Assembly (NCBI GenBank): GCA_964016885.1 | Contig: OZ024742.1 | Span: forward strand, 325,376,001 to 325,440,000 | DNA: 64,000 bases | Direction: 5' to 3' | Source of the DNA: Eledone cirrhosa | Taxonomy: Eukaryota | Program-made: the position numbers and the translations under genes | Shown: piece by piece, positions 6,108 to 64,000 of the stretch | Numbering within the stretch: position 1 is the stretch's first letter | Layout of the letters: each line of letters opens with the position of its first letter | Notes under the pieces: model-generated | The model's input: only the letters and a program-made list of their open reading frames with translations | What the model was told of the DNA's origin: nothing | Database searches by the model: none

Positions 6108-6470
6108 GTATAGGATTATCCTAGATGTAGTAATGGTTAATTACTACACTGGATATGGGGATATGGTTGACGTACGGTGAGAGGTTACTCTACGAGTTAT
6201 GGAAGAATTGTTGAAGAAACTTAGTTCCTGATCCTTCTGTATACTGGAGTGTATATAAAGAATGTATAATAACAGGTAGACATCATAAAAAGGTAATTTA
6301 TTCCGTGTGCTTACAAATGTTTCCACGGTTGTACTACAGCCTATTTATGCTATGTGCAAATTTACAACTATTTGCAGAACTCAAATATCCATTACTACAT
6401 CTAGGATAATCCTATACCTAATAATCGCCTCCTACACAGTTGAGCAACCACACCGACATACGGCATTAAT

Positions 6471-8773
6471 ATGGAAAGGCATCATATAGGTATGTCACTT
6501 AAAAACATACCTATACCTAACAAAAGGGAATATATTCTTAATATGATTCAACTTAATAACGACTTCATTCGGCGTGTACGATGGAAGGCTTTCCATTTCG
6601 ATAAGGGACACGCCAGTCACTCGTCTGAATCATATGGTTTTAAATCATGTAAAATCCCACCCATAATCCTCCATATCGATGCTTTCGAACAAGATTTAAT
6701 GAAAACGACCATGAACATTAAGTTCAACAGACATAGAAATAATGAGCTGCAGAACAACATGAAAGCACTACTCCAAAGACTGCAAAATACCAATGGAATT
6801 GGTGAGAAAGCTGACAAGACCTCTAACGTGTATACCATGGATATCGATACGTACAATAACTTCATACGCAACGAACTACACAAAAAATATAGAAAAACAA
6901 ATGAAACTACGCTAGCAAATATTAACAACGAGGCATTCAAAGTGGTGAAGAATCTCAACATAGACGATAGAACCGAGCCAATTATACCCGCTACCCCCAC
7001 CTTTAACCCGAAGGACCATAAGGTAAATTTTGACTCTAACCCTAAGATTAGACTTATATGCCCTTCTAAATCAGGCATAGGAAAAATTAGCAAATATATA
7101 CTTGACTCAAGTGAAAAAGAAAATTGAAATTAAATTATGGGGCAACACTAGCGAAGCAATTCGCAGGTTTAATAACGTTAAGAATAACAATAAATCTAAG
7201 TTTATACAATTTGACATAGACGAATACTACTCTTCCATCTCACCAAGCACTTTACGTAAGGCCCTATCGTTTGCTAAGGTCAATTCCGACCTAACGGAGG
7301 ACGAAATTAATATTATTCTCGAGGCTAGAAAAACTATTATTAAGATTGATAACTGCTACTGGGAACGTAAGGACAGACCCACAAACTTCGACATTACCAT
7401 GGGTTCCAACGACTCAGCGGAGGTCACGGATCTTGTGGGAATTTACATAGCCCACATACTACATAGTAAATTTAGTAATTTACAGGGGGGATATACAGAG
7501 ATGACGGGCTCTTATTAGTTAATAATTTGAATAACCAAAATCTTGAAAGGCTACGGAAAAATATTAGAAAATCTTTTAGTGAACTGGGTCTAAAAATAAC
7601 ATACGAATACAATCTTAAAGTAGTAAACTTTCTGGACGTAACTCTTAATTTAAATACCGGACAGATACGACCCTTCCACAAGATGAATGAGAACCTTACG
7701 TATATTAACTTTAACTCAAACCACCCACTCTCCATGATCAAATCGGTTCCCCGGAGTATTTCTCTTAGAATCTCTCGCCTATCGTCTAACTCTGATATTT
7801 TTACTAAACACGCTGAATACTATAATAATGCATTAAGGAATGCCGACCACCGGGATACAATAGAATACATTGATAGGAATCTCCATAAGACACATAATTC
7901 TACACGAAATCAAGGAATACGTAACCGAGGGACTAAAATACAAGCGCACACACACAGTACCACCAGACATACTAATAATAGAAAATCACCACCAAATAAA
8001 TCACGTTGTAGAAAGTATATCTGGTATAATCCTATTTTGAATGCCTCGATTAGTACAAAACTATCTCTTTCATTCTTTAAGTTAATCAACAAACATTTCC
8101 CTAGTTCCCATAAATACAGCAACATTCTGAACTCTAAAGCTATTAGACTATCATACTCCACGACACCAAACCTTGAAGCATACATAAAAAAACTTAACTT
8201 AAAGCAATTAAATAACACTACAAAACAAAATATTTTAGTAACAGATGGGTAGAACGTAATATCTGCCTCCCAACCACTAAATGGGAGACGGGTATTACAC
8301 AATCCACCTGTACTGCTATCACAACCTATCCATGGTATACCCTCTACCCACAACAAAGAATGTAACTGCCATCTACCTGAAAGATGTCCATTGAAGAATG
8401 AATGCCTAAAGTCCAACATTGTTTACCAATGCACGGTTGAAACGAACGACCAGAAATGCTATTATATCGGATCTACCACCACCTCGTTTAAATCTCGCTG
8501 GTACCGTCATCGATTCTCAATCACCGTTTTGTGACCACGCTCGCCAACAAGACCTGGCAACTCCGTGAACGCAACCAAGAGTTCACCTTAAAATGGGATA
8601 TACTTTCCAGCGCAGGTGCATATCGGAGTGTATTGAAGTACTGTAGGTTATGTAACCTTGAACTATTTTACATATTAAAATCCAAAAACAAACTACTTAA
8701 CGATAGAATTGAACGATCATTATACTGCAACCACAAACTAAAAGCTAAATTATCTCACTATAAAATAACTTAA
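6471..8773 (+). pseudogene. Penelope-like RT + GIY-YIG endonuclease ORF, frameshifted
   Basis: Motifs NIPIP, ADKT, KDHKVNF..PKIRLICPSKS, FIQFDI.EYYSSI, FDITMGS.DSAE, G-YRDD (frameshifted near 7490), VNFLDVTLNL, CNC-x5-C, NIVY..YYIGST and CRLCNLE. Split over at least 4 frames, with a TAG at 8250. Confidence 0.92.
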
Positions 8774-18248: not shown

Positions 18249-20133
18249 GGTGGTGAGAGACTCCTGCAACATCTTCACTCTTTGTTTGGCAGGATATGGG
18301 CTAATGAAACCGTACCTGAGGAGTGGAGAGATGCAGTAATGGTGGTCCTGTAGAAGGGAAAGGGTAACAGGAACGATTGTGGGAACTACAGATGTATATC
18401 ATTGCTTTCTGTCGTAGGGACAGTTTTATGTAGGGTGCTTCTGGACCGTCTGCTGACACACATTGCAGATTGTGTTCTTCCTGAAAGTCAATCTGGTTTT
18501 CGTGCTGAATGCGGCACTACTGATATGATCTCAGCTAGACAGCTCCAAGAGAAGTGCATGGAACAAGGCTTGGATCTGTATCAGGTTTTTGTCGATCTGA
18601 CAAAAGCTTTCGATACTGTTAACAGAGATGCATTATGGAAGGTTCTCCAGAAACTTGGTTGCCCTGATAAGTTCCTTGCTTTAGTTAGGTCTTTCCATGA
18701 CGACATGAAGGCTTGGGTTAATGTCGGGGGTAACATGTCGGAGCCTATCTCAGTAAAAAATGGAGTGAAACAGGGGGATATTCCAGCACCGACCCTGTTT
18801 GCCATATACTTCGCAATGGTTTTCTGTATTGTATTCAGGAATTGCGAGCATGGTGTTTACATCCGATATCGAACCTCAGGCAGCATATTTAACATCAGGC
18901 GCTTTGCTGCGAAGACAAAAGTATTTACATCAATCATAAGAGACCTTTTGTATGCAGATGATTGCGATCTTGTAGCGCACACAGAGAGTGATATGCAGCA
19001 CATTTTGAATGCATTTTCTGAAGCTTGCACTGCCCTAGGTCTGACAGTCTGTCTCAAGAAAACCGTCGTCATGTACCAACCTGCCCATGGTAAGCAGTAC
19101 ACTGAACCAAACAACTATGTGTATGGCAAACGACTTGGAGTGGTTGATCAGTTTGTCTACCTGGGAAGCACTGTCAATCGATACAGCAACCTTGACAGTG
19201 AAATCTCACTTAGGATTAGGAAAGCAAGTTATGCTTTCGGAAAGCTAGAAAGGCGACTCTGGGGTCGGCGAAACATATGCAGGAGGACAAAGGTAAAGGT
19301 GTACAGGGCATGTGTGCTCCCTTGTCTTCTTTATGCCTGCGAGACCTGGGTCACATATCGACACCACCTTAAGCAATTGGAGCGTTTCCATCAGATGTGT
19401 CTCAGACGGATCCATGGCGTTCACTGGAGCGACCACATCAGTGATGTCGAGATTTTGGAAAGATCTATGTGTGACAGTATAGAAGCTCTTGTGCTTAAGC
19501 AACGACTCCGTTGGAGTGGCCACCTTGCCAGGATGAAGGATTCTAGAATACCAAAACAACTCTTTTATGGAGAGTTGGTTAAAGGAAAACGACCGCCACA
19601 TAAACCAAAAATGAGGTATAAGGATTCCTTGAAAGCCTCTCTGAAAGACGCTAACATCTCTGCTGATACATGGGAGAATATTGCTGCTGATCGTAATACA
19701 TGGAGAAAGACTGTATATGAGGGAAAAGTTGCCTTTGAGGCATCTCGAATCGCATACGAGAAAGTAAAGCGGGTTGTCAGGAAGGGCATTGCTGTTGCAC
19801 TTCCAGACGGCGAGGGTCCTCCTATGGTGCTGACATGCAGCGTATGTGCGAGACTCTGCCTAAGCAAAGCTGGACTCGAAAGTCATCTTCGCAGTCATAA
19901 AGTAAGACCAGTGGTTGACTACCAGGCTGCTGTTGGAGATGCTACTCATCATGCTTGCCAAACATGTGGTAGAGAATGTAAATCAGCAGGAGGGCTCAAG
20001 CGACATGCAAAAGTACACGAACTTCAACCACAGCCGACTATTCCCAGTAAATGTTTTGGTTGCCGACTCTGTGCAAGACATTTTAGATCATTGGCTGGGC
20101 TAAAAAAGCCACATTCGATCGCATCGCTGTTAG
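18249..20133 (+). pseudogene. RTE ORF: RT plus three C-terminal C2H2 zinc fingers
   Basis: In frame from 18249 (GGERLLQHL...) with one TAG at ~18351. A +1 A at ~20102-20107 shifts the true end LKSHIRSHRC* (TAG 20131-20133). The listed 716-aa ORF tail is microsatellite read-through. Confidence 0.9.
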
Positions 20134-20281
20134 TTGCTATCGTGTGTGTGTGTAGATATGCTTATGTGTGTGCGTGTGTGTGTATATATATATGTATATT
20201 ATTATTGTTGTTGTCATTATTATTGTTGTTATTATTATTATTATTATTATTATTGTTATTATTATTATTGTTATTAATGTA

Positions 20282-20316
<35 letters not shown>

Positions 20317-20329
20317 TTGTGTATATGTG

Positions 20330-20360
<31 letters not shown>

Positions 20361-20480
20361 CTTTTATTTATTTATTTTTTATTTTTTATTTTTATTTTAT
20401 TTTTATTTATTTATTATTATTTTTTTTTTCTTTCTACTCGTGTAATGGCCATACTCGATAACGAGGGGGCAGCCATCATG
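18249..20480 (+). mobile_element. RTE-clade LINE, 5'-truncated
   Basis: RT motifs NYR.ISLL, PESQSGFR, FVDLTKAFD, GVKQG and LYADD, then YLGS, LYACETW, LRWSGH and RIPKQLFYGEL. The 3' end GTAATGGCCATACTCGATAACGAGGGGGCAGCCATCAT is followed by a TATG tail. Confidence 0.95.
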
Positions 20481-21395
20481 TATGTATATAGTGTGTGTCT
20501 GTATGTAAAGTTCAGACATTTCATATGTGTCAACGCTACGACAAGAATGTGAAGAGTAGGAATTGGAGAAAAAAGTATCGTTACGAAAAGAGAATGTTTG
20601 CATCTACGCCAAAAGTTGTTATGATGATATTAATAGTGAAGATGTAAGTATACATGAATAAAAGCTATATCTCTCCTATTGCTACTGTGTAATTTCACGT
20701 TGATATTTATTCAATATTTCATATGTATACATATAATTTGTATTTTACTATTTGAAACTTTAAATCATACAAGCTGTTAAGTTAACGCAAATCCTCTTTA
20801 TCCAAAAAACTGCACGTATTAATATTTACCGTGAACATATAACGATACTTTCACACAACCTGATATCCATACATAATTCAGAAACTTTATAAAGTAGCCA
20901 ATTTTTTGAAATATAATATACTGTTCCTCTTCCGTTTATATGCTAATTTGTCGATCAAATAAATGTGTACCGCGACTTGCATATCAATTGAGAGATGTAG
21001 AGAACATACACGAATTGGAAATGGAAATTTCTACTAAGTCGCTGTCTAGCACGAGATTAAATAACTTGTCTAATCCAATTGCTTATCACAGTAAATTATG
21101 AATCTAATGTATCAATTCATGTAAGAATTACTGAAGTCAATGTACGCATGAGGAGTACAGGCAGTATGAAGTAAGTATCTATACAGCTATACACTAATAC
21201 ACGACAACAGGCAACATAACCAGCAATTGTCTGTCCGTTTTCAATATAACTCATTCAAAATGAAGATTATATGAGATTAAATAAATGATTAAGAGGAATA
21301 GATGACGCTGTTATCGTAATAATTTGATAAAACCTTAGCAAAATATCTATATATAACGCAGTCTTTTTTTATGTTTGTGCAATGTTTGAATCATT

Positions 21396-29620: not shown

Positions 29621-30068
29621 ATACTATATTATATTATATTATATTATATTATATGCAGATATTTTAAAGTTTCTAACGTGAGTAGTAACTAGTTATCACC
29701 AAGAGATTATTCACCCCACACCTGGATTTCAACATGTCTAGGGGGTCCCACTAGAATGACCAATGCCACTGTGAGTGGACCTGACAGCACTGCCACCGAT
29801 GGATGGTGTTATGGGCGAGTAGCTGTTGGTAGTTTGGTGGTAAGGTAAGATACATTCATTACTATAAATAGCTATTGACTTGGACGCAAGCTTACAGGTT
29901 AGTTGATATATAGAGGACATAGAGAGAATGTTATCAGTGCCCCTATCCCTCTACAGCGAGTAAGATAGGGGAACTGATGAGGAGGAGCGGGGTGGATAAA
30001 AATAATAACCGGATTGATGCTATGGAACTGCATAGTTGTCAAATCCATATTGCATACTTATTCTTATG

Positions 30069-30108
<40 letters not shown>

Positions 30109-30299
30109 CATATATATATAGTTATGTATATATATATGTATATATATATAGCGGCGATGAATTAGTTTGGCAACATTGAGGACCGAGTAAGTTAGATTAC
30201 CGATATAAAAGACAGCGAGAAGCAAAAACCAACCAAACAGTGAGTGTGTTCTGTTATTAATTCTGGCAATATTACACAAATATGACCCTCCCCAAGTAT

Positions 30300-30350
<51 letters not shown>

Positions 30351-30440
30351 TAATATATATGAGTAATATATATGATGAAACAGATCCCAACACATCTGTA
30401 TTTATATTTAGAAGTGAAGCTTATCAATTGTATCTGGATG

Positions 30441-30508
30441 TTTACTGAGGAGAGCAGTGGCATGATATTCCTACACTTATACATTATTCATCTCGAAACA
30501 TGTTTGGA
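30441..30508 (+). ncRNA. Hammerhead candidate, monomer 1 of 524-nt tandem
   Basis: ttta CTGAGGA gag..ctc GAAA catg TT tgga. Palindromic stem III CATG. Confidence 0.7.
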
Positions 30509-30964
30509 TTTTAAGGTTTAAATTTATCTACGGAACAGGTTTGATTTTGAAATTTAAATATGTATAAACATCATAGCCATTTGGCAGCGCAGCTAGTTTT
30601 TGTCGATTTATTATTTTAAATCGATGTGGACGAACTGTGGTAAAATAATTAATATTCTTCATTCTGGCTAATTTTCTTTTGCAATATAAATACAGATGTG
30701 TTGGTATCTGTTTCATCATATATATTACTCATATATATTACTTTTATACACGGTTCAGGAATATTTCCTTTTGAGCTAATTCCATTGTAAAAGAATTCAT
30801 TACACTTAATATAACTGCTCCTGGTTGAGCTGAAATTCGCCTCATATATACGACTGTTATTTCTAGCAGTACGGTTATGAGACTAGCTTGAATCTGTGAA
30901 CCCATGTGCGTCACACAGTCTTTAAAATTATTTAGAAGTAAAGCTTATCAATTGTCTCTGGATG

Positions 30965-31032
30965 TTTACTGAGGAGAGCAGTGGCATGATATTCCTACAC
31001 TTATACATTATTCATCTCGAAACATGTTTGGA
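30965..31032 (+). ncRNA. Hammerhead candidate, monomer 2 of 524-nt tandem
   Basis: Same motif exactly 524 nt downstream. Confidence 0.7.
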
Positions 31033-31332
31033 TTTTAAGGTTTAAACTTATCTACGGAACAGGTTTGATTTTGAAATTTAAATATGTATAAACATCATAG
31101 CCATTTGGCAGCGCAGCTAGTTTTTGTCGATTTATTATTTTAAATCGATGTGGACGAACTGTGGTAAAATAATTAATATTCTTCATTCTGGCTAATTTTC
31201 TTTTGCAATATAAATACAGATGTGTTGGTATCTGTTTCATCATATATATTACTCATATATATTACTTTTATACACGGCTCAGGAATATTTCCTTTTGAGC
31301 TAATTCCATTGTAAAAGAATTCATTACACTTA

Positions 31333-31365
<33 letters not shown>

Positions 31366-45748: not shown

Positions 45749-45831
45749 TATTTTCCGTTGTGTTGTAATATAAATATTACACACAGTAGATTATCAGCTC
45801 ACGTAGAGTTTGCTCGACGGTTCCAGTTGTA

Positions 45832-47874
45832 GTTCCAAACAGCAAATTACAGAAAGATATAAAAAAACTACTGGACGACCTTAAAAACACCAAAGGAATT
45901 GTAGTAAAAGCGGACAAAACATCAAACCTGTACACTATGGATTGCACTACATACAACAACTTCATTCGAAAAGAATTACATAAAAAATATAGAAAAACGA
46001 GTGAAGTAACCCTTAAGCACATCAATGATGAGGCATGCGAAATAGTGAAAAATCTCGGAATCGAAGATAGGACAGGACCACTCTTACCGGCGGTACCCAC
46101 CTTCAATCTTAAGGACCACAAGGTAAACTTTGATAATGACCCTAAAATTAGATTAATCTGCCCCTCTAAATCAGATATAGGTAAAATAAGCAAATATATC
46201 TTAGATAGAATCATCCCCCAAATTAAGGCTAAGGTTAACATTAAACTCTGGGGGAAGACCCAGGAAGCAATAAGATGGTTTAATAGCATTAGCAATAAGA
46301 ATAAATCTAAGTTTATCCAGTTTGATATCGATGAATATTACTCATCGATATCACCTGAAACTTTGAATAGAGCCATTAAGTTTGCTAAGGATAACTCTGA
46401 CCTTACAAACGATGAAATTAAGATTATATTAGAAGCTAGGAAAACTATAGTCAAATTTGAGAACAGTTATTGGGTACGTAAAGATAGACCCTCTAACTTT
46501 GACATAACAATGGGCTCTAACGATTCGGCGGAAATAACTGATATTGTGGGGTTATTTATCGCCTTTAGACTCCAGGAAAAATTCAGCAATCTCCACGGCG
46601 GAATATACCGCGACGATGTTCTCCTCCTAGCTAAAAACCTTAATAACCAAAAACAAGAAAAACTACGCAAAGATATAAGAAAACTACTACTCGAAATAGG
46701 ACTAACTATAACATATGAATACAACCTTAAAGTAGTTAACTTCCTGGATGTCACACCCAATTTAAACTCTGGTTTGATTAAACCGTTTCATAAATTGAAT
46801 GAAAATCTCAAATACGTAAATGTTGGGTCTAACCACCCCTTCTCTATAATTAAATCTATCCCTAAAAATATTTCCCTTAGAATCTCGGGTCTATCTTCTA
46901 ACATACAAGTATTTAAGGAACACGCCGAGTACTACGATAACGCCCTTAGTAAAGCAGGCTACCTCAACAAAATAGAGTACATAGATGGGAACAATCAAAA
47001 CACCCAAAATAAATCCCACATAGGTAGATATAATAACACAACACCAAACCACACTTACTACCATAGTATGCACACCAGTAAACCAACAAACAAAACTAAT
47101 AGAAAGCGATGCAAAGAGTACTTATGGTATAACCCCGAATACAATAGCTCCATTAGTACAAATTTACCAGTACTCTTCTTTAAAATAATTAAAAGACATT
47201 TTCCCACATCACACAAATACCACAAAATCCTAAACCCTACCACTATAAGACTGTCATACTCTACAGCGTTAAACCTTGAACAACACATAAAAAAGATCAA
47301 TACTAGAAGGTTAAACGAAAACACTAAGAACTTAAGTACAAAGAACACAAAAAAAACAGTAGACAATACACTACAGAACATAAATAAACCACACCTAAGT
47401 TCGTCCGCAATACTACTCCAGAGAAAACCCAACGTACACAACTGTAACTGCACCTATCCTGACAACTGCCCCCTCGGCAATAACTGCCTGGAAAAAAATA
47501 TTATTTATAAGTGTACCATTAAATCCGGAGGCAACGAGTGGTATTACGTGGGATCAACGGCAACAACGTTTAAATCTCGATTGTATAGGCATTCTTACTC
47601 AATAAAACACCAGAGCCAAAGAAATGTAACAACTCTAGCAGAAAAAGCTTGGACGCTGAGGGATAGCGATCAAAAGTTTACCCTAAAAAGGGAAAAATTA
47701 GCTAAAACCCAAAGCTTTTCCAGGAGCCAAAATTTCTGCAAATTGTGTAATCTTGAGATTTATTACATAATCACACACAAGAAGAAACTGCTGAATAACA
47801 GAATTGAACGAACATTATTCTGCCGTCACAGAACTAAAACCCTTTTTTCCCACTACAAGCCGAATATTACATAA
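45832..47874 (+). CDS. Penelope-like RT/GIY-YIG polyprotein (uninterrupted, N-terminus missing)
   Basis: The 645-aa ORF at 45937-47874 is open upstream to ~45832 and colinear with copy 1. Motifs: GGIYRDD, VNFLDV, CNCTYPDNC, NIIYKC..WYYVGST, CKLCNLE, CRH. Confidence 0.9.
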   Translation, partial: VPNSKLQKDIKKLLDDLKNTKGIVVKADKTSNLYTMDCTTYNNFIRKELHKKYRKTSEVTLKHINDEACEIVKNLGIEDRTGPLLPAVPTFNLKDHKVNFDNDPKIRLICPSKSDIGKISKYILDRIIPQIKAKVNIKLWGKTQEAIRWFNSISNKNKSKFIQFDIDEYYSSISPETLNRAIKFAKDNSDLTNDEIKIILEARKTIVKFENSYWVRKDRPSNFDITMGSNDSAEITDIVGLFIAFRLQEKFSNLHGGIYRDDVLLLAKNLNNQKQEKLRKDIRKLLLEIGLTITYEYNLKVVNFLDVTPNLNSGLIKPFHKLNENLKYVNVGSNHPFSIIKSIPKNISLRISGLSSNIQVFKEHAEYYDNALSKAGYLNKIEYIDGNNQNTQNKSHIGRYNNTTPNHTYYHSMHTSKPTNKTNRKRCKEYLWYNPEYNSSISTNLPVLFFKIIKRHFPTSHKYHKILNPTTIRLSYSTALNLEQHIKKINTRRLNENTKNLSTKNTKKTVDNTLQNINKPHLSSSAILLQRKPNVHNCNCTYPDNCPLGNNCLEKNIIYKCTIKSGGNEWYYVGSTATTFKSRLYRHSYSIKHQSQRNVTTLAEKAWTLRDSDQKFTLKREKLAKTQSFSRSQNFCKLCNLEIYYIITHKKKLLNNRIERTLFCRHRTKTLFSHYKPNIT

Positions 47875-55416: not shown

Positions 55417-57590
55417 TTGTATACATATATATGTTAATATATAACCCAATATTAATATGGTTCATTGATTACTCAATGAATATAGTTTTACAATAGATTA
55501 AAAGCACTCTACAGCAAAGTTATCAGGAGTTATTATTATTCAGAATAATAATAAATGAAGACATTCTCATAATCAAAATATGTTTTATTATATATATTTC
55601 GAAGGTACTGTGCTGTTTTGTGACACACACAAAAACAAGATGGCGTAGGACAGAACAAAGGAGAGGCACAAAAACAAAGAAAATAATCCCCAGTTACTGA
55701 AGAGGTCACAGAATGTGTGACGAAAGAACTTTGACAATATATAAACAACCATCTGGTTGTGGAACCAACCAACCAACCGGAAATTTATAAATTCCTAAAT
55801 TTATAAATTTATTATAATAAATTGAAGTGAAGGCAACTGGTGCGTGTGTTTCTTATTGGCAACATGACCCTCCCAAAGTATAACAATATCGGTTTCAACA
55901 CACGTTTTCAGATAAAGAATCTTGCTAAACAAATTCAGAAACGAAATATATATATATATATATATATATGTAGAGAGAGGGAGATAAAAGTATATAGATA
56001 AAATCAGAGGGAAGGTGATAGATTTGAAAAGGGGAATCAAACTATGTTATTGAAGTGATACCATTTATGTGTCAATACTTTGCCATATTACTCGTTTCAT
56101 TGATGGAAAAACGCCTACCTCTTTGAGAATCATTACATTTACATAGGTGTCAATATATATGTTTTCTCCTGCGTTACCTAAGCTGTGGGACAGACAGCGA
56201 TTCATAGATAAATGGGGACTGAAATAAATAATGTTATCGATATCATCGACTCAGTAATTGTTGGCACATGACATTATCTTCATCTTGCTTCTTTTCATGT
56301 TAGAACATTTCAAAGAGTTTTACGTCCATCACAGAGGTAATGCAGAGATAAATAAAATACAAATGAGGCCACATTCACAAATGCACATATATATGAATAT
56401 GTGTGTATTATTTCATGTTGGCGACCATAATTACTTCATCAACAATAAAGAATTCTCGGGTTTTTACGTTATTTAAGATCAAAAGGCTTAGGTGGTTAAT
56501 GCTTTCTTGACCACTTAAATAGCTCCTGTCATTCTCCAGATCGTATGTAGGTTTGGTTCACTGAGCCATCCAAAACTCAACTTAATTTTGATATGCTAGA
56601 TACCAAATAAACTTCCTAACTTACGCCATAACACAAGCGGAAAAAATTCATTCGGAAAAAAGTCACATTCACCAAGCTGCTATATATGAATCCCAAGAGT
56701 TGTAACGGAGTCACAACCACGGGAAAATCAATTATTCAACGGCGAGACAGATTATTTGCTTCAATAGTCCAAGGTAAAGTATCCATCTATGATATAGCCA
56801 CAACATACAAATCTGCAAAAACAGATCTGGTAAACCTTCCTACTAATATATCATCAGATTTCTTCAAAACTGTGCTTCAGTTGTATAATGAACATAGACA
56901 CTATTATAATAAACCACAATACATGTATCTGTATAAACGAAGATATAAACGCTATATAAACGAAGAAATATGGCAAAATACTGGCCTATCACAGATTGTC
57001 GAAATGTTACCAATAAGCCTCATATGTATTGTCATTGTATAGTCGAATAGCATTCCTATATCCAGTGCAAAAACATTGATTGCACCAATATATTAAACTA
57101 CAGGCTCCAGAATAGAAACACAACACCATCCAAAAATATTTGGAAATCAAACGATGCAGGAATATGTATATAATTTCTCAATCATTCTGTCCTTTATTCA
57201 CGAAGAGTGTAATAAATATCCCACATATCAACACTTGAAATTAATGAACAAATATTTATCAGAAAGAAATATATTATGTAATAAATCCAATTTATATCTA
57301 AACTGTTTTCCTGAGTGTTCGCATTTACGGAAACCTGTTATGATAACGTAATTATTTCATATAAAGCATGAATGTACTTCAAGCTAAAGTCTGATCAATG
57401 TTATGTACATAAAGTATAATACATTTATGAATAAATACATCATTCTGTTTCTCCAGACAATCGTATGCATCGCATATTTCCATTATTTCGATTAAATTAA
57501 TAAATTAAACTAAATCTGACGCAAATAACATTTACAGAGTTGATGAATACTAGTACCATATTAAGACTGAAACGAAGTTTAAAACAATTG

Positions 57591-60251: not shown

Positions 60252-63200
60252 TTTCTTTATTAACCACAAGTGTTTACATAAAGTAGACATTAAGGACAGT
60301 ACAGGACAATACAGGGCGGTACAAATGGGCATTTCTGCGTGTAAAAAAACAAGAAACAGAGGATGTAATAATAGAACAATGAAAATATTCCCCAATGGGG
60401 GGAGACTTCCGAGGGACATTCGTGGAGAAAGACCATTAAAAAGCCACAGTGACCCTGACCACCAGTCAAGTGCCCTCTCCCAGTGTTCCACCTTTAATTT
60501 ACAGACACATACTCAGAGTAGGCCCATTCACTCGGGCCATTCTTGCATCTCTCACCCATCTTTCAACAAAATGCTGGGAAGAGAGCACTTCCCTCTCTAC
60601 TCTGATTTTCCTTTTCAAATGAAATTTGAAAAAGTCAATCAGGGCATCACCGAAGAGGTAAGTGCTCGTATTCAGCCCTTTCAAACGTTTCCACCATACT
60701 ATCTCTTTCGCCATGTCCACCAGACAGATAAAAAGTGCCTGCCCTTCCCGGCTAAAGGAAGATTGCGGGGCAATCTTCACGATGGACTCAGATGATAGCC
60801 GGATCCGTCCTACACGCGACAGCAGGTGTTCAACATAAACCCACAAGTCAGCAATTTTCGGACACTGGACGACTGCGTGCAGGACGGTTTCGTCGCCCTG
60901 CGCGCATCTCGGACATGCCCGGCTTACGGCACCTCCATGCCTGTAGAGTTTATCCCGAACTAGCAAAGCTCCTCGGTAGCACTGCCAGGCCAGAGATTTC
61001 TGGAAGTTGTCCATAGGCCCCGGCCCGAAAGTTCTTCCGTAGAGATTGGCTAGTTGATTTTCGTCAACGCCTAGAGTTTCCCCAAGTACGTCGTCGCTCT
61101 TCCCCTCCACTAATCCTCTATAGAACGTTGAGGTGGAGTTTCCACCGATCACATTGCCCGATTGGTCGAGGGCTGTGGGCGCCTGAAGACATTCCAGTCT
61201 CCAGGCGCTCAGTCTCGGTCTTCGCTTGACCCAGTATTGCAGCTCCGTCAAGGAAACGAGCTGGGGAAATATGTGTCTAACAAACGGCGACCACACCTGA
61301 TTACAGTCGAGGAAGAAGTTGAGATGTCGTAGCCTGAGAGCGTATCTGGGCATCATCAGCCACGGCATGCCCAGCCCTCCACGTAGCGGGTGTTGACAAC
61401 AGATAGACCGCCTGACCATCGGGCGCGTCCCTTCCACAAAAAGCGAAAGAGCAAACGCTCCAGAGCAGTCAGGCGGGGCTTAGGACAAGGTACGATTATC
61501 AGACGGTAGCAGATGACAGACGCGATGTACGCGTTAGCCACCTCCGCTCGACCTTTCAGGGATAGATTCCTCTCCGCCCATTTCTGGGTAAGAGAAGCCA
61601 CCCTGCTCGTCACCTCGTCCCAGTTTTTGTCCGTCTGGAGGTCCGGACCGAACCAGACCCCTAGCAATTTTACTGGTCCGTCCGTCCAGCGTCCGACGAC
61701 GCTGTTGGACGGCATGGACCTGCCTCTACAGGTGCCGAGCTGCAGGCCCACTGACTTTTCCTGGTTGATCATTGCTACTGTCACCGCTTCGTATTCTCTT
61801 AGTGTAGTGCCGATCGCCTCGATGTGTCTGGCGTTCGACACCACTACGGTGACATCGTCCGCATATGCTGACACGGATCTTCCGCATCCTAGTTCGCGCG
61901 GGACGCCCCTCAATGTCTCCAGTTTGTGCAGTAATGGCTCGAGAGTCAATACGTACAAAGGGACGAGAGGGGACATCCTTGGCGGCCCGAGCGCTTGATG
62001 TTGAACGGTTGTGAAAGGTGACCGTTCACTCTCACTACAGAGCAGATGTCGCTGTTCATGGCAGCAATCCAGCGTCTGTAGACGGGCCCAAAGCCAGCCA
62101 CCCTCAGGACTGCCGCTAGGTAACGATGGTCGAACCTATCGAAGGCTTTCGACTGATCTAAATTGATCAAGGACCCACCCGTGCCAGGTTCCCTAGCTAC
62201 CCTCTCTACGATGTATCGCATGAGGTGGAGGTTGTCGTGGATGGATCTGTCGAGAATGGCGCATGTCTGCGCCTCTCCCACCAAACCATCAACGACAAGT
62301 GCCAACCTCTTTGCTAGTACCTTTGCCAAAATCTTGAACTCTGTGTTTAGCAGAGTTATGGGCCTGAAATTATCTATGTTATCCCCCTTGTTCGGATCCT
62401 TTCTCAGCAGTGCCGGCGCTCCTCGGCTCACAGAGCTGGGAATTCTCCCGTTCTGTTGCCAGTTGTAGTAGACGTCCGCCAAGAGGCCTCCGAACAAGTA
62501 TGGCATCTGTACGTAAAGTTCATAGGGCAGACCATCCAAACCAGGCGAGTTACCCCTTGTGCAGCCAGTCATTGCCTCCCGTATTTCAGCGGCTGTTATC
62601 GGCTTTTCGCAACTCCTCGCCTCAGTGGCCGAGAGCCGCGGCAGTCCGTCGAGGTAGACACTAAAGTCCATCCCTCGACCCGGCCCGCCGCTGCCCCCGA
62701 ACAGCTGAGCGAAGTGTCGCTGAAAAGCTTCACACATTTGCCCGGGATCGAGTAGCATGCGCCCGTCGTGTTCCACCATAGACCGGATCGTGGCTTTGTT
62801 GCCACGACGCACCTCCGCCACTCGGGCCCATTGAACGGCTTTCGTCCCCTCGTGTCTGAGAGCATGCACCCTAGTTCTGACAACGCAGCCTTCATGCTTT
62901 GCATTGAAGAATTGGTCAAGGGCCAATTTCGCCGCAAGCACGTCGGTCGCGATGCCTCTGCTAAGCGCCTCGTTCGTCTTATTTTCTAACTAGTTCCCCT
63001 CTGCTCTATTTTTCTCTATTGCTAAAGCCTTACTAAACCTAATGGACTCTATTCTAATCGCTCTTTTCGGAACAAACCACCACTTGTTGTTGACGATGGC
63101 CCCCATCAACGCCCGCTTAACTAGTTCGCTAATCCGGTCTCTGTAGGCCTTGGGCGCTGGTAAGGATGCGTTTAGCTTCCAGTAGCCGAGTCCTCGTCTA

Positions 63201-64000
63201 TGAAGCCTATCTAAGTCAAGCACACAGATCACGAATTTGTGGTCCGTGTAGCTGACTATCTTGAATTGTGGACAGCCTATGCTAGACCTATCTATTTCCT
63301 TACAACTCTACTTAGATATGATCTGGATGACCCAATGCGATTTGTCCAAGTCCACAATGGCACATTCGGGAAATCCAATCGGTACCTGCCAGACAGTTCA
63401 AAACGCCTGAGCAGGATGGTGAGGCTCTTGCACCCTCCTCCCCTATCCGTTAATCCCACACAGTCCCAGCGTGCCTCTAAGATCCCGTTCCAGTCGCCCA
63501 CTAACACTAAAGAGCGGGAGTTCCAAGAAAGGTCTCCAGACGCCGGAAGAAATCAGGCCGCCCTGCTCCTGTCGGGGCATAGACGGCCACTAGCCTGAAA
63601 GCTTTCCCGTCTCCTCTGGGTACGTCCAGCACCACCAACTTACCCTCTGGGTCCAGGAAGATGGCCCGTATGGCGAGATCCTCTCCGAAAAAGCACAGCA
63701 ACTCCTCCCTCCCCGATGCTTCGGAGATTCTGGTCTCGCTGATGGCCACTACATCTATGTTTAGTGACCTGAGGTCGTTGAGTAGGTGGCCCTGCTTCCA
63801 TGACGACCCCAAGCCACGCGCATTTATGCTGCCTATTCTGAGTGAGGTCATGTTGAAAAGGAGTGGAAAAGATGGGAAAGACCACTTACCTTACTTCTCG
63901 TAGGGGAAGGACGGCTTTTCCATCCTTTTCACTGCTTGTGGCCTCCTCAGGAAGGATGTCCTTATGAATCCTCCTGGAGAGTGCTTGTCGGAAGTCTCCG
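60209..64000 (-). mobile_element. Tx1/L1-clade LINE, continues past the window end
   Basis: Minus-strand frameshifted ORF2: APE start (LRIGSINARGL, VAVYAP, GDWN), GYWKLN, SPGLDGLPYE, FRPITLLN, LDQSKAFD, RQGCPLS, AYADDV, GGLGMP, CPRC..ETVLHA..QC. AATAAA and a (TTA)n tail at 60209-60262. Confidence 0.95.
60499..63851 (-). pseudogene. Tx1/L1 ORF2 (APE endonuclease-RT-zinc knuckle), multiple frameshifts
   Basis: ORF-track pieces 63507-63851, 63292-63507, 62990-63232, 61946-62941, 61356-61976 and 60499-61437 are colinear domains. Confidence 0.92.

Follow-up and report, generated by a model that had tools for sequence, protein, structure and literature searches.

A dispersed family of non-coding hammerhead repeats with Penelope-type insertion ends in the genome of Eledone cirrhosa

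A tandem repeat with two hammerhead motifs lies in the window, i.e., the whole 64,000-nt stretch of Eledone cirrhosa DNA analyzed here, and raises the question of what kind of mobile element left it there and from which form of RNA it was copied. A first-pass annotation had described two identical hammerhead motifs 524 nt apart in a near-identical direct repeat of about 1.8 units, an inverted copy of about 65 bp on the 5' side, (TA)n flanks and a lack of coding capacity, and had read the more-than-unit insertion as the trace of rolling-circle reverse transcription.

Structure of the window copy

The structural part of this description held throughout. The main arm consists of a direct repeat (30405-30813 vs. 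30929-31337, offset 524) of 409 nt with four mismatches (30416, 30432, 30523 and 30754) and totals 933 nt, i.e., 1.78 head-to-tail units of 524 nt, while the inverted cap (30343-30408) matches 30683-30748 in reverse complement, with a single mismatch in 66 nt. The hammerhead cores, CUGAGGA...GAAAC at 30445-30504 and 30969-31028, are identical, and (TA)n is present on both sides. The unit has a GC content of 31.7% and its longest stop-free frame comprises 77 codons (63 when counted from ATG); a frame for reverse transcriptase plus GIY-YIG domain, as in an autonomous Penelope-like element (PLE), is absent. The right boundary, originally placed at 31333, needed correction to 31337, where the arm stops within the TA run. 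The features are given below, with q denoting the unit coordinate and q1 corresponding to 30505.

30304..30342, unstranded: left (TA)n target, from the sequence
30343..30408, minus strand: inverted second arm, q179-244, ending at the short 3' site q244, from the alignment
30405..31337, plus strand: main arm, 1.78 units, q425-524 + q1-524 + q1-309, ending at the long 3' site q309
30440..30523, plus strand: hammerhead motif 1, type I, core 30445-30451 + 30495-30499, stem II GAG/CUC, predicted cut after 30504 (register A) or 30518 (register B)
30964..31047, plus strand: hammerhead motif 2, predicted cut after 31028 or 31042
30505..31028, plus strand: full 524-nt unit, the predicted monomer under register A
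30507..30554, plus strand: predicted long hairpin directly 3' of the core, q3-q50
31273..31337, plus strand: 65-nt 'tail' between the two fixed 3' ends found here, putative reverse-transcription starts by comparison with PMC11167929
31338..31358, unstranded: right (TA)n target, from the sequence

Other repeats surround this copy. The left flank (30200-30305) represents the 3' end of a relative of a very abundant coding PLE family with an end spacing of 60 nt, and it is the (TA)n end of this relative into which the window copy is inserted; further 3' ends of the 60-nt-spacing type, with tail, are found in the window at 55864 (plus strand) and 23004 (minus strand). A lone CUGAUGAGGAG stretch at 29973-29990, upstream of the window copy, lies within another repeat. 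By reading of the translations, frames at 18354-20552 (plus strand) and 60499-63890 were assigned to LINE-type reverse transcriptases of two other families. PLE-type reverse-transcriptase frames are located at 6444-8252 and 45790-47874 (both plus strand); the latter, which comprises 694 codons and gave no match in Pfam, is a member of a young family in which frames of 785 codons are followed, behind the stop, by a hammerhead-like motif whose core reads AAAA.

Dispersal and insertion ends

A DNA search of the 3.0-Gb assembly returned at least 158 matches (39 of 1320 candidates scored), and an exact hammerhead 21-mer occurs 137 times in the genome, compared to 0 for the reversed control. The analysis was based on 73 non-redundant insertions with 125 arms, 52 of the insertions being two-armed. 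Overlapping fetches of the same locus, second copies from segmental duplications (L031, L032/L033) and the sister loci L091-L098 were left out before ends were counted; L068 (86-87% identity) was kept in the end counts and excluded from the private-variant count, and L055/L056 and L089 were excluded from the junction counts. The copies are spread over many contigs, their units measure about 520-535 nt, and 20 of the 73 insertions were flagged as having an arm with at least two motifs. Flanks were examined over 1.5 kb at many loci and up to about 7 kb at others, and at the loci read a full unit is preceded 5' by another unit, an inverted arm or flanking DNA, with no common coding body. The proposal of a young retroelement that is present in many copies, lacks coding capacity, bears a hammerhead and is inserted as more than one unit was borne out, and neither of the outcomes that the first-pass annotation had set against it, a single-copy local duplication or a unit always attached to a coding Penelope body, was seen at the loci read.

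A search for hammerheads sharing GAG/CUC-GAAACA yielded 65 matches. Among 20 loci read plus L071, eight belong to a sister family 78-87% identical to the unit, while the remaining ones are without similarity to it. A third related non-coding family (L225-L249) has a unit of about 557 nt that is 69-72% identical, its copies being 96-98% alike. Contigs from three runs of one sample cover the unit, with variants, and are of a kind that cannot show RNA, ends or circles.

Read on the hammerhead strand and within (TA)n, the 3' ends of 63 of the 125 arms fall at q305-311 and those of 48 at q241-247, with 14 elsewhere, so that two sites separated by 65 nt account for 111 arms; the 5' ends show a uniform distribution over the unit (KS p=0.12, 125 arms). 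Wherever both ends of a two-armed insertion lie at fixed sites, in 41 cases, one is long and one is short, and the same site is never used twice (p ~5e-13 at 0.5); at least one irregular end is present in the remaining 11 of 52. The window copy, with its main arm ending at q309 and its inverted cap at q244, fits this pattern, and a like one was recognized by eye in the sister family, where one subfamily has a longer tail of about 80-86 nt. Copies starting at circularly permuted positions, as anticipated earlier, were thus not encountered in the form expected, the positions of the 3' ends being restricted to two sites and those of the 5' ends alone being random. Fixed ends had also been listed, together with a coding body, as counterevidence; the fixed 3' ends do exist and represent the Penelope insertion pattern, and no common coding body was seen at the loci read.

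PLE insertions have been described as comprising a partial tandem, an inverted 5'-truncated copy and a one-sided tail (Craig et al., 2021, 10.1101/2021.04.23.441226), and in vitro the tail corresponds to the stretch between two reverse-transcription start sites of Poseidon_Ac, whose enzyme cleaves both strands of AT-rich DNA and extends them (Frangieh et al., 2024, PMC11167929). Fixed 3' ends, an optional tail, variable 5' truncation, an inverted 5'-truncated arm and a one-sided tail are all seen in the family studied here; a target duplication is unreadable within (TA)n. The tail can form a hairpin of five pairs (no two-sided change, z -1.0), which was not used as evidence.

Two 3' ends are also a property of coding PLE families of the same genome. 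In a family encoding 784 aa with a GIY-YIG domain they are 39 nt apart, and all 3 two-armed loci, out of eight read, show one end of either kind. This family (L141-L148) is very young, with many near-identical copies, and a simple pattern search did not find the CUGANGA...GAAA motif inside the element. In a second family, which has its own hammerhead and open frames reaching about 1280-1300 codons, the two ends are separated by 60 nt, and a third has a spacing of about 59 nt, a value resting on 1 of 30 loci. Owing to the Penelope 'tail' signature and the occurrence of two 3' ends in these coding families as well, the window copy is very probably a non-autonomous PLE, i.e., a non-LTR retrozyme. 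With regard to an autonomous partner, three protein queries with the best 150 matches each led to 88 loci of the three coding families, in which neither similarity to the unit nor a pLTR homologue of it was found and the unit is present only as a neighbouring insertion; the spacings of 39, 60 and about 59 nt differ from the 65 nt of the unit.

Could the copies simply be 5'-truncated pLTRs of a coding Penelope element yet to be seen? We consider this highly improbable. Their ends are PLE ends and truncation is common in PLEs (Craig et al., 2021), the DNA searches scored 23-40 candidates each, so that a rare long copy could be missed, and the one-armed copies L035 and L047 adjoin reverse-transcriptase fragments. 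These fragments, however, read as LINE-type by their translations and are joined at different unit positions (q409 and q143), what lies upstream of a full unit is always a further unit, with up to 23 in succession, and 0 of the 88 coding-PLE loci share the unit other than by adjacency. The same-strand copies 6.5 kb apart at L031, considered as a pLTR-ORF-pLTR arrangement, turned out to result from segmental duplication, and the PLE frame there lies on the opposite strand.

Spreading at the DNA level alone, as a local tandem duplication or satellite, is hardly credible. It would be in line with the higher-order variant blocks, typical of unequal crossing-over, in a 23-unit array at C4:230.48 Mb (L055:4593 to L056:6880) that is bounded by one long and one short end, and long arrays do also grow at the DNA level, as seen from these blocks. 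On the other hand, it leaves the location on many contigs, the strand-specific fixed ends, the random opposite ends and the inverted arms unexplained, and a 0.78-unit precursor lacks the redundancy for recombination. DNA-level spread is therefore refuted for dispersal and holds only for the later growth of long arrays.

The hammerhead motif and the RNA template

When the unit was shuffled 2000 times with its dinucleotides preserved, the combination of CUGANGA, 3-bp stem II and GAAA appeared in 5 of the shuffled sequences. Both consecutive units contain the type I hammerhead core with stems II and I, as retrozymes do, in an atypical form (3-bp stem II, loop II of about 37 nt), as is evident from 0 matches in Rfam at gathering score for the whole window. 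Two registers can be drawn. Register A has a one-pair helix III, a palindromic loop CAUG and a wobble-rich stem I, and its C15.2-N16.2 pair is lost in 30 of 31 distinct sister motifs. In register B the cut lies 14 nt further 3' and stem I consists almost entirely of Watson-Crick pairs, at the cost of a 16-nt loop; the pair C15.2-G16.2 is kept in 65 of 65 distinct motifs vs. 35 of 65 in register A, and Watson-Crick pairs account for about 4.8 of the five stem I pairs vs. 2. Register B was nevertheless rejected as decisive and is not counted as settled because the same bases pair in the downstream hairpin q3-q50, which is kept in all three related families by one-sided changes only and which, in the predicted fold, would hide the register-B cut site. 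Of the cut pair 30504/31028 predicted initially, the 524-nt monomer stands, being obtained with both registers, while the exact position is one of two that are possible, the other being that of register B (30518/31042).

Constrained hammerhead folds lie 11-15 kcal/mol above the minimum in both registers, the hammerhead is never part of the minimum-energy fold, and the circular fold of the monomer reaches a weak z of -2.1 (60 shuffles). Core position 7 varies between G, U and A among subfamilies, a free variation that constraint on the motif would predict. A9 is a conserved hammerhead core base, and an A9-to-U lineage of the sister family comprises seven separate insertions, five of them with at least two motifs; no paper on the effect of A9U was found among those listed. 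In the third family the hammerhead is degraded (2-bp stem II, mismatched stem I) while the downstream hairpin is perfect. Because the modelled folds lie above the minimum, the A9U lineage has inserted repeatedly and the third family has spread with a degraded motif, hammerhead activity is doubtful. Among established systems, a one-pair helix III with palindromic tetraloop is reported for axolotl HHR_Amex1, and axolotl motifs of this design depend on dimers (Cervera, 2014; Cervera and de la Pena, 2020, PMC7229834), while 8 of 9 Xenopus retrozyme dimers did not cleave (Li, Clavereau and Pollet, 2026, 10.64898/2026.07.22.740005).

A cut linear monomer is disfavoured as the usual template. The first junction is passed by 80 of the 83 arms reaching it and the second by 20 of 25, and no accumulation of 5' ends is seen at the cuts, with 4 and 3 of 125 lying within 6 nt of the candidate positions at an expectation of 3.1. 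The more-than-unit length of the insertions is not in itself proof of a rolling circle, as an uncut multi-unit transcript yields the same product (Frangieh et al., 2024).

At 56 diagnostic columns, 2291 of 2340 cells are homogeneous, about 577 mixed ones being expected at random; to judge from these columns, all units and both arms of one insertion are one lineage. Eight insertions carry a private variant in every unit covering it, three of these on both arms, and 166 private variants are confined to one unit. The assembly contains the private 1-nt deletion of the window copy exactly twice, once in each of the two units of this copy. On the basis of the homogeneous lineage, the private variants in all units and the restriction of the window deletion to its two units, repeated reading of one unit-length RNA, likely a circle, is favoured, as proposed earlier for PLEs (Cervera, 2014), and a circle would lead to such a reading without further steps; for circularity of the template itself we regard the chances as even. 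Alternatively, the shared private variants could derive from source loci missing from the single assembly or from gene conversion.

A realistic though less favoured explanation is a non-autonomous PLE copied from an uncut linear multi-unit transcript, or by template jump, in which the hammerhead would be a decaying pLTR relic and a circle would be unneeded. Cleavage is dispensable for Poseidon_Ac, whose main substrate is uncut RNA (Frangieh et al., 2024), the A9U lineage and the degraded third family still spread, the missing 5'-end pile-up at the cut sites fits equally well, and possible multi-unit sources exist in the 20 of 73 insertions with an arm of two or more motifs, up to 23 units. A linear source, however, would be unable to raise the unit number or to place a new variant in all units; furthermore, the subfamilies are internally uniform at the 56 columns, just one long array was seen, and the window deletion is without a source locus in the assembly.

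Mode of movement and relation to known elements

We slightly favor the view that the window copy is an insertion of a dispersed non-coding hammerhead family with PLE-type ends that was likely moved by PLE reverse transcriptase and endonuclease and likely copied from a unit-length RNA read repeatedly, probably a circle. A copy would be transcribed on the hammerhead strand, as suggested by the fixed ends being 3' ends of that strand, and there is about an even chance that the two hammerheads would then cut out a monomer that is subsequently ligated. A PLE enzyme would nick both strands of a (TA)n run, and each strand would start reverse transcription at its own fixed site, the two sites being separated by 65 nt; the enzyme in this step is modelled on Poseidon_Ac, while the fixed ends and the use of one of each are observed. 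Each cDNA would cross the hammerhead junction and halt at random, and the two would be joined head to head, yielding the arm structure observed.

The element type is already known, and the family is a further member. Judged by sequence features, it falls under the definition of animal non-LTR retrozymes (Cervera and de la Pena, 2020), which have been argued to be non-autonomous PLEs (Li, Clavereau and Pollet, 2026). It shares with described metazoan retrozymes non-coding tandem units of a few hundred bases with a GC content below 50%, one type I hammerhead per unit and an organization as dimers to multimers (Cervera and de la Pena, 2020; Li, Clavereau and Pollet, 2026), and register A shares with HHR_Amex1 the one-pair helix III and palindromic tetraloop, here CAUG. 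With 524 nt the unit exceeds the reported circles of 170-400 nt (Cervera and de la Pena, 2020) and falls within the range of 51-972 bp given by Li, Clavereau and Pollet (2026); loop II is very long and stem II short in comparison, and the family is known from DNA, not from RNA circles. Li, Clavereau and Pollet (2026) linked retrozymes to PLEs via co-occurrence and pLTR homology, with neither 'tail' nor 'junction' appearing in their main text, whereas the link drawn here rests on insertion ends, without a pLTR homologue in the three coding families compared.

In common with PLE insertions (Craig et al., 2021; Frangieh et al., 2024) are the partial tandem, the inverted arm, the one-sided tail, the AT-rich or microsatellite target and the two fixed 3' ends, while an ORF is absent and the tail, which measures 65 nt in the present family and about 80-86 nt in a subfamily of its sister, is longer than the 30-40 nt reported in these studies. 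Chlamys non-autonomous PLEs, e.g., MRC1, share 3'-end similarity with their autonomous partner, and hammerheads are reported to be lacking from their clade (Craig et al., 2021); the present family, in contrast, has a hammerhead motif and no partner matched. The open literature, taken as articles rather than supplements, yielded no report of it.

The family contributes insertion-end evidence for an animal retrozyme moved by Penelope machinery. Tentatively, and with less confidence than for the reading above, each insertion may go back to one circular RNA. Two Penelope reverse transcriptases would begin on it at two set positions, with strictly one for each strand of the target, and would run on in rolling fashion across the ribozyme junction; the three related families, all of them young, whose hammerheads are strong, mutated and decayed, respectively, would then provide a natural series for testing whether ribozyme-made circles are required for Penelope partial tandems. 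The one-per-arm use of two reverse-transcription start sites in 41 of 41 cases constrains the still unresolved mechanism of PLE integration, and the element, which is small, young and non-coding and of which natural ribozyme mutants exist, could serve as a substrate for deciding whether PLEs are copied from circles or from uncut multimers.
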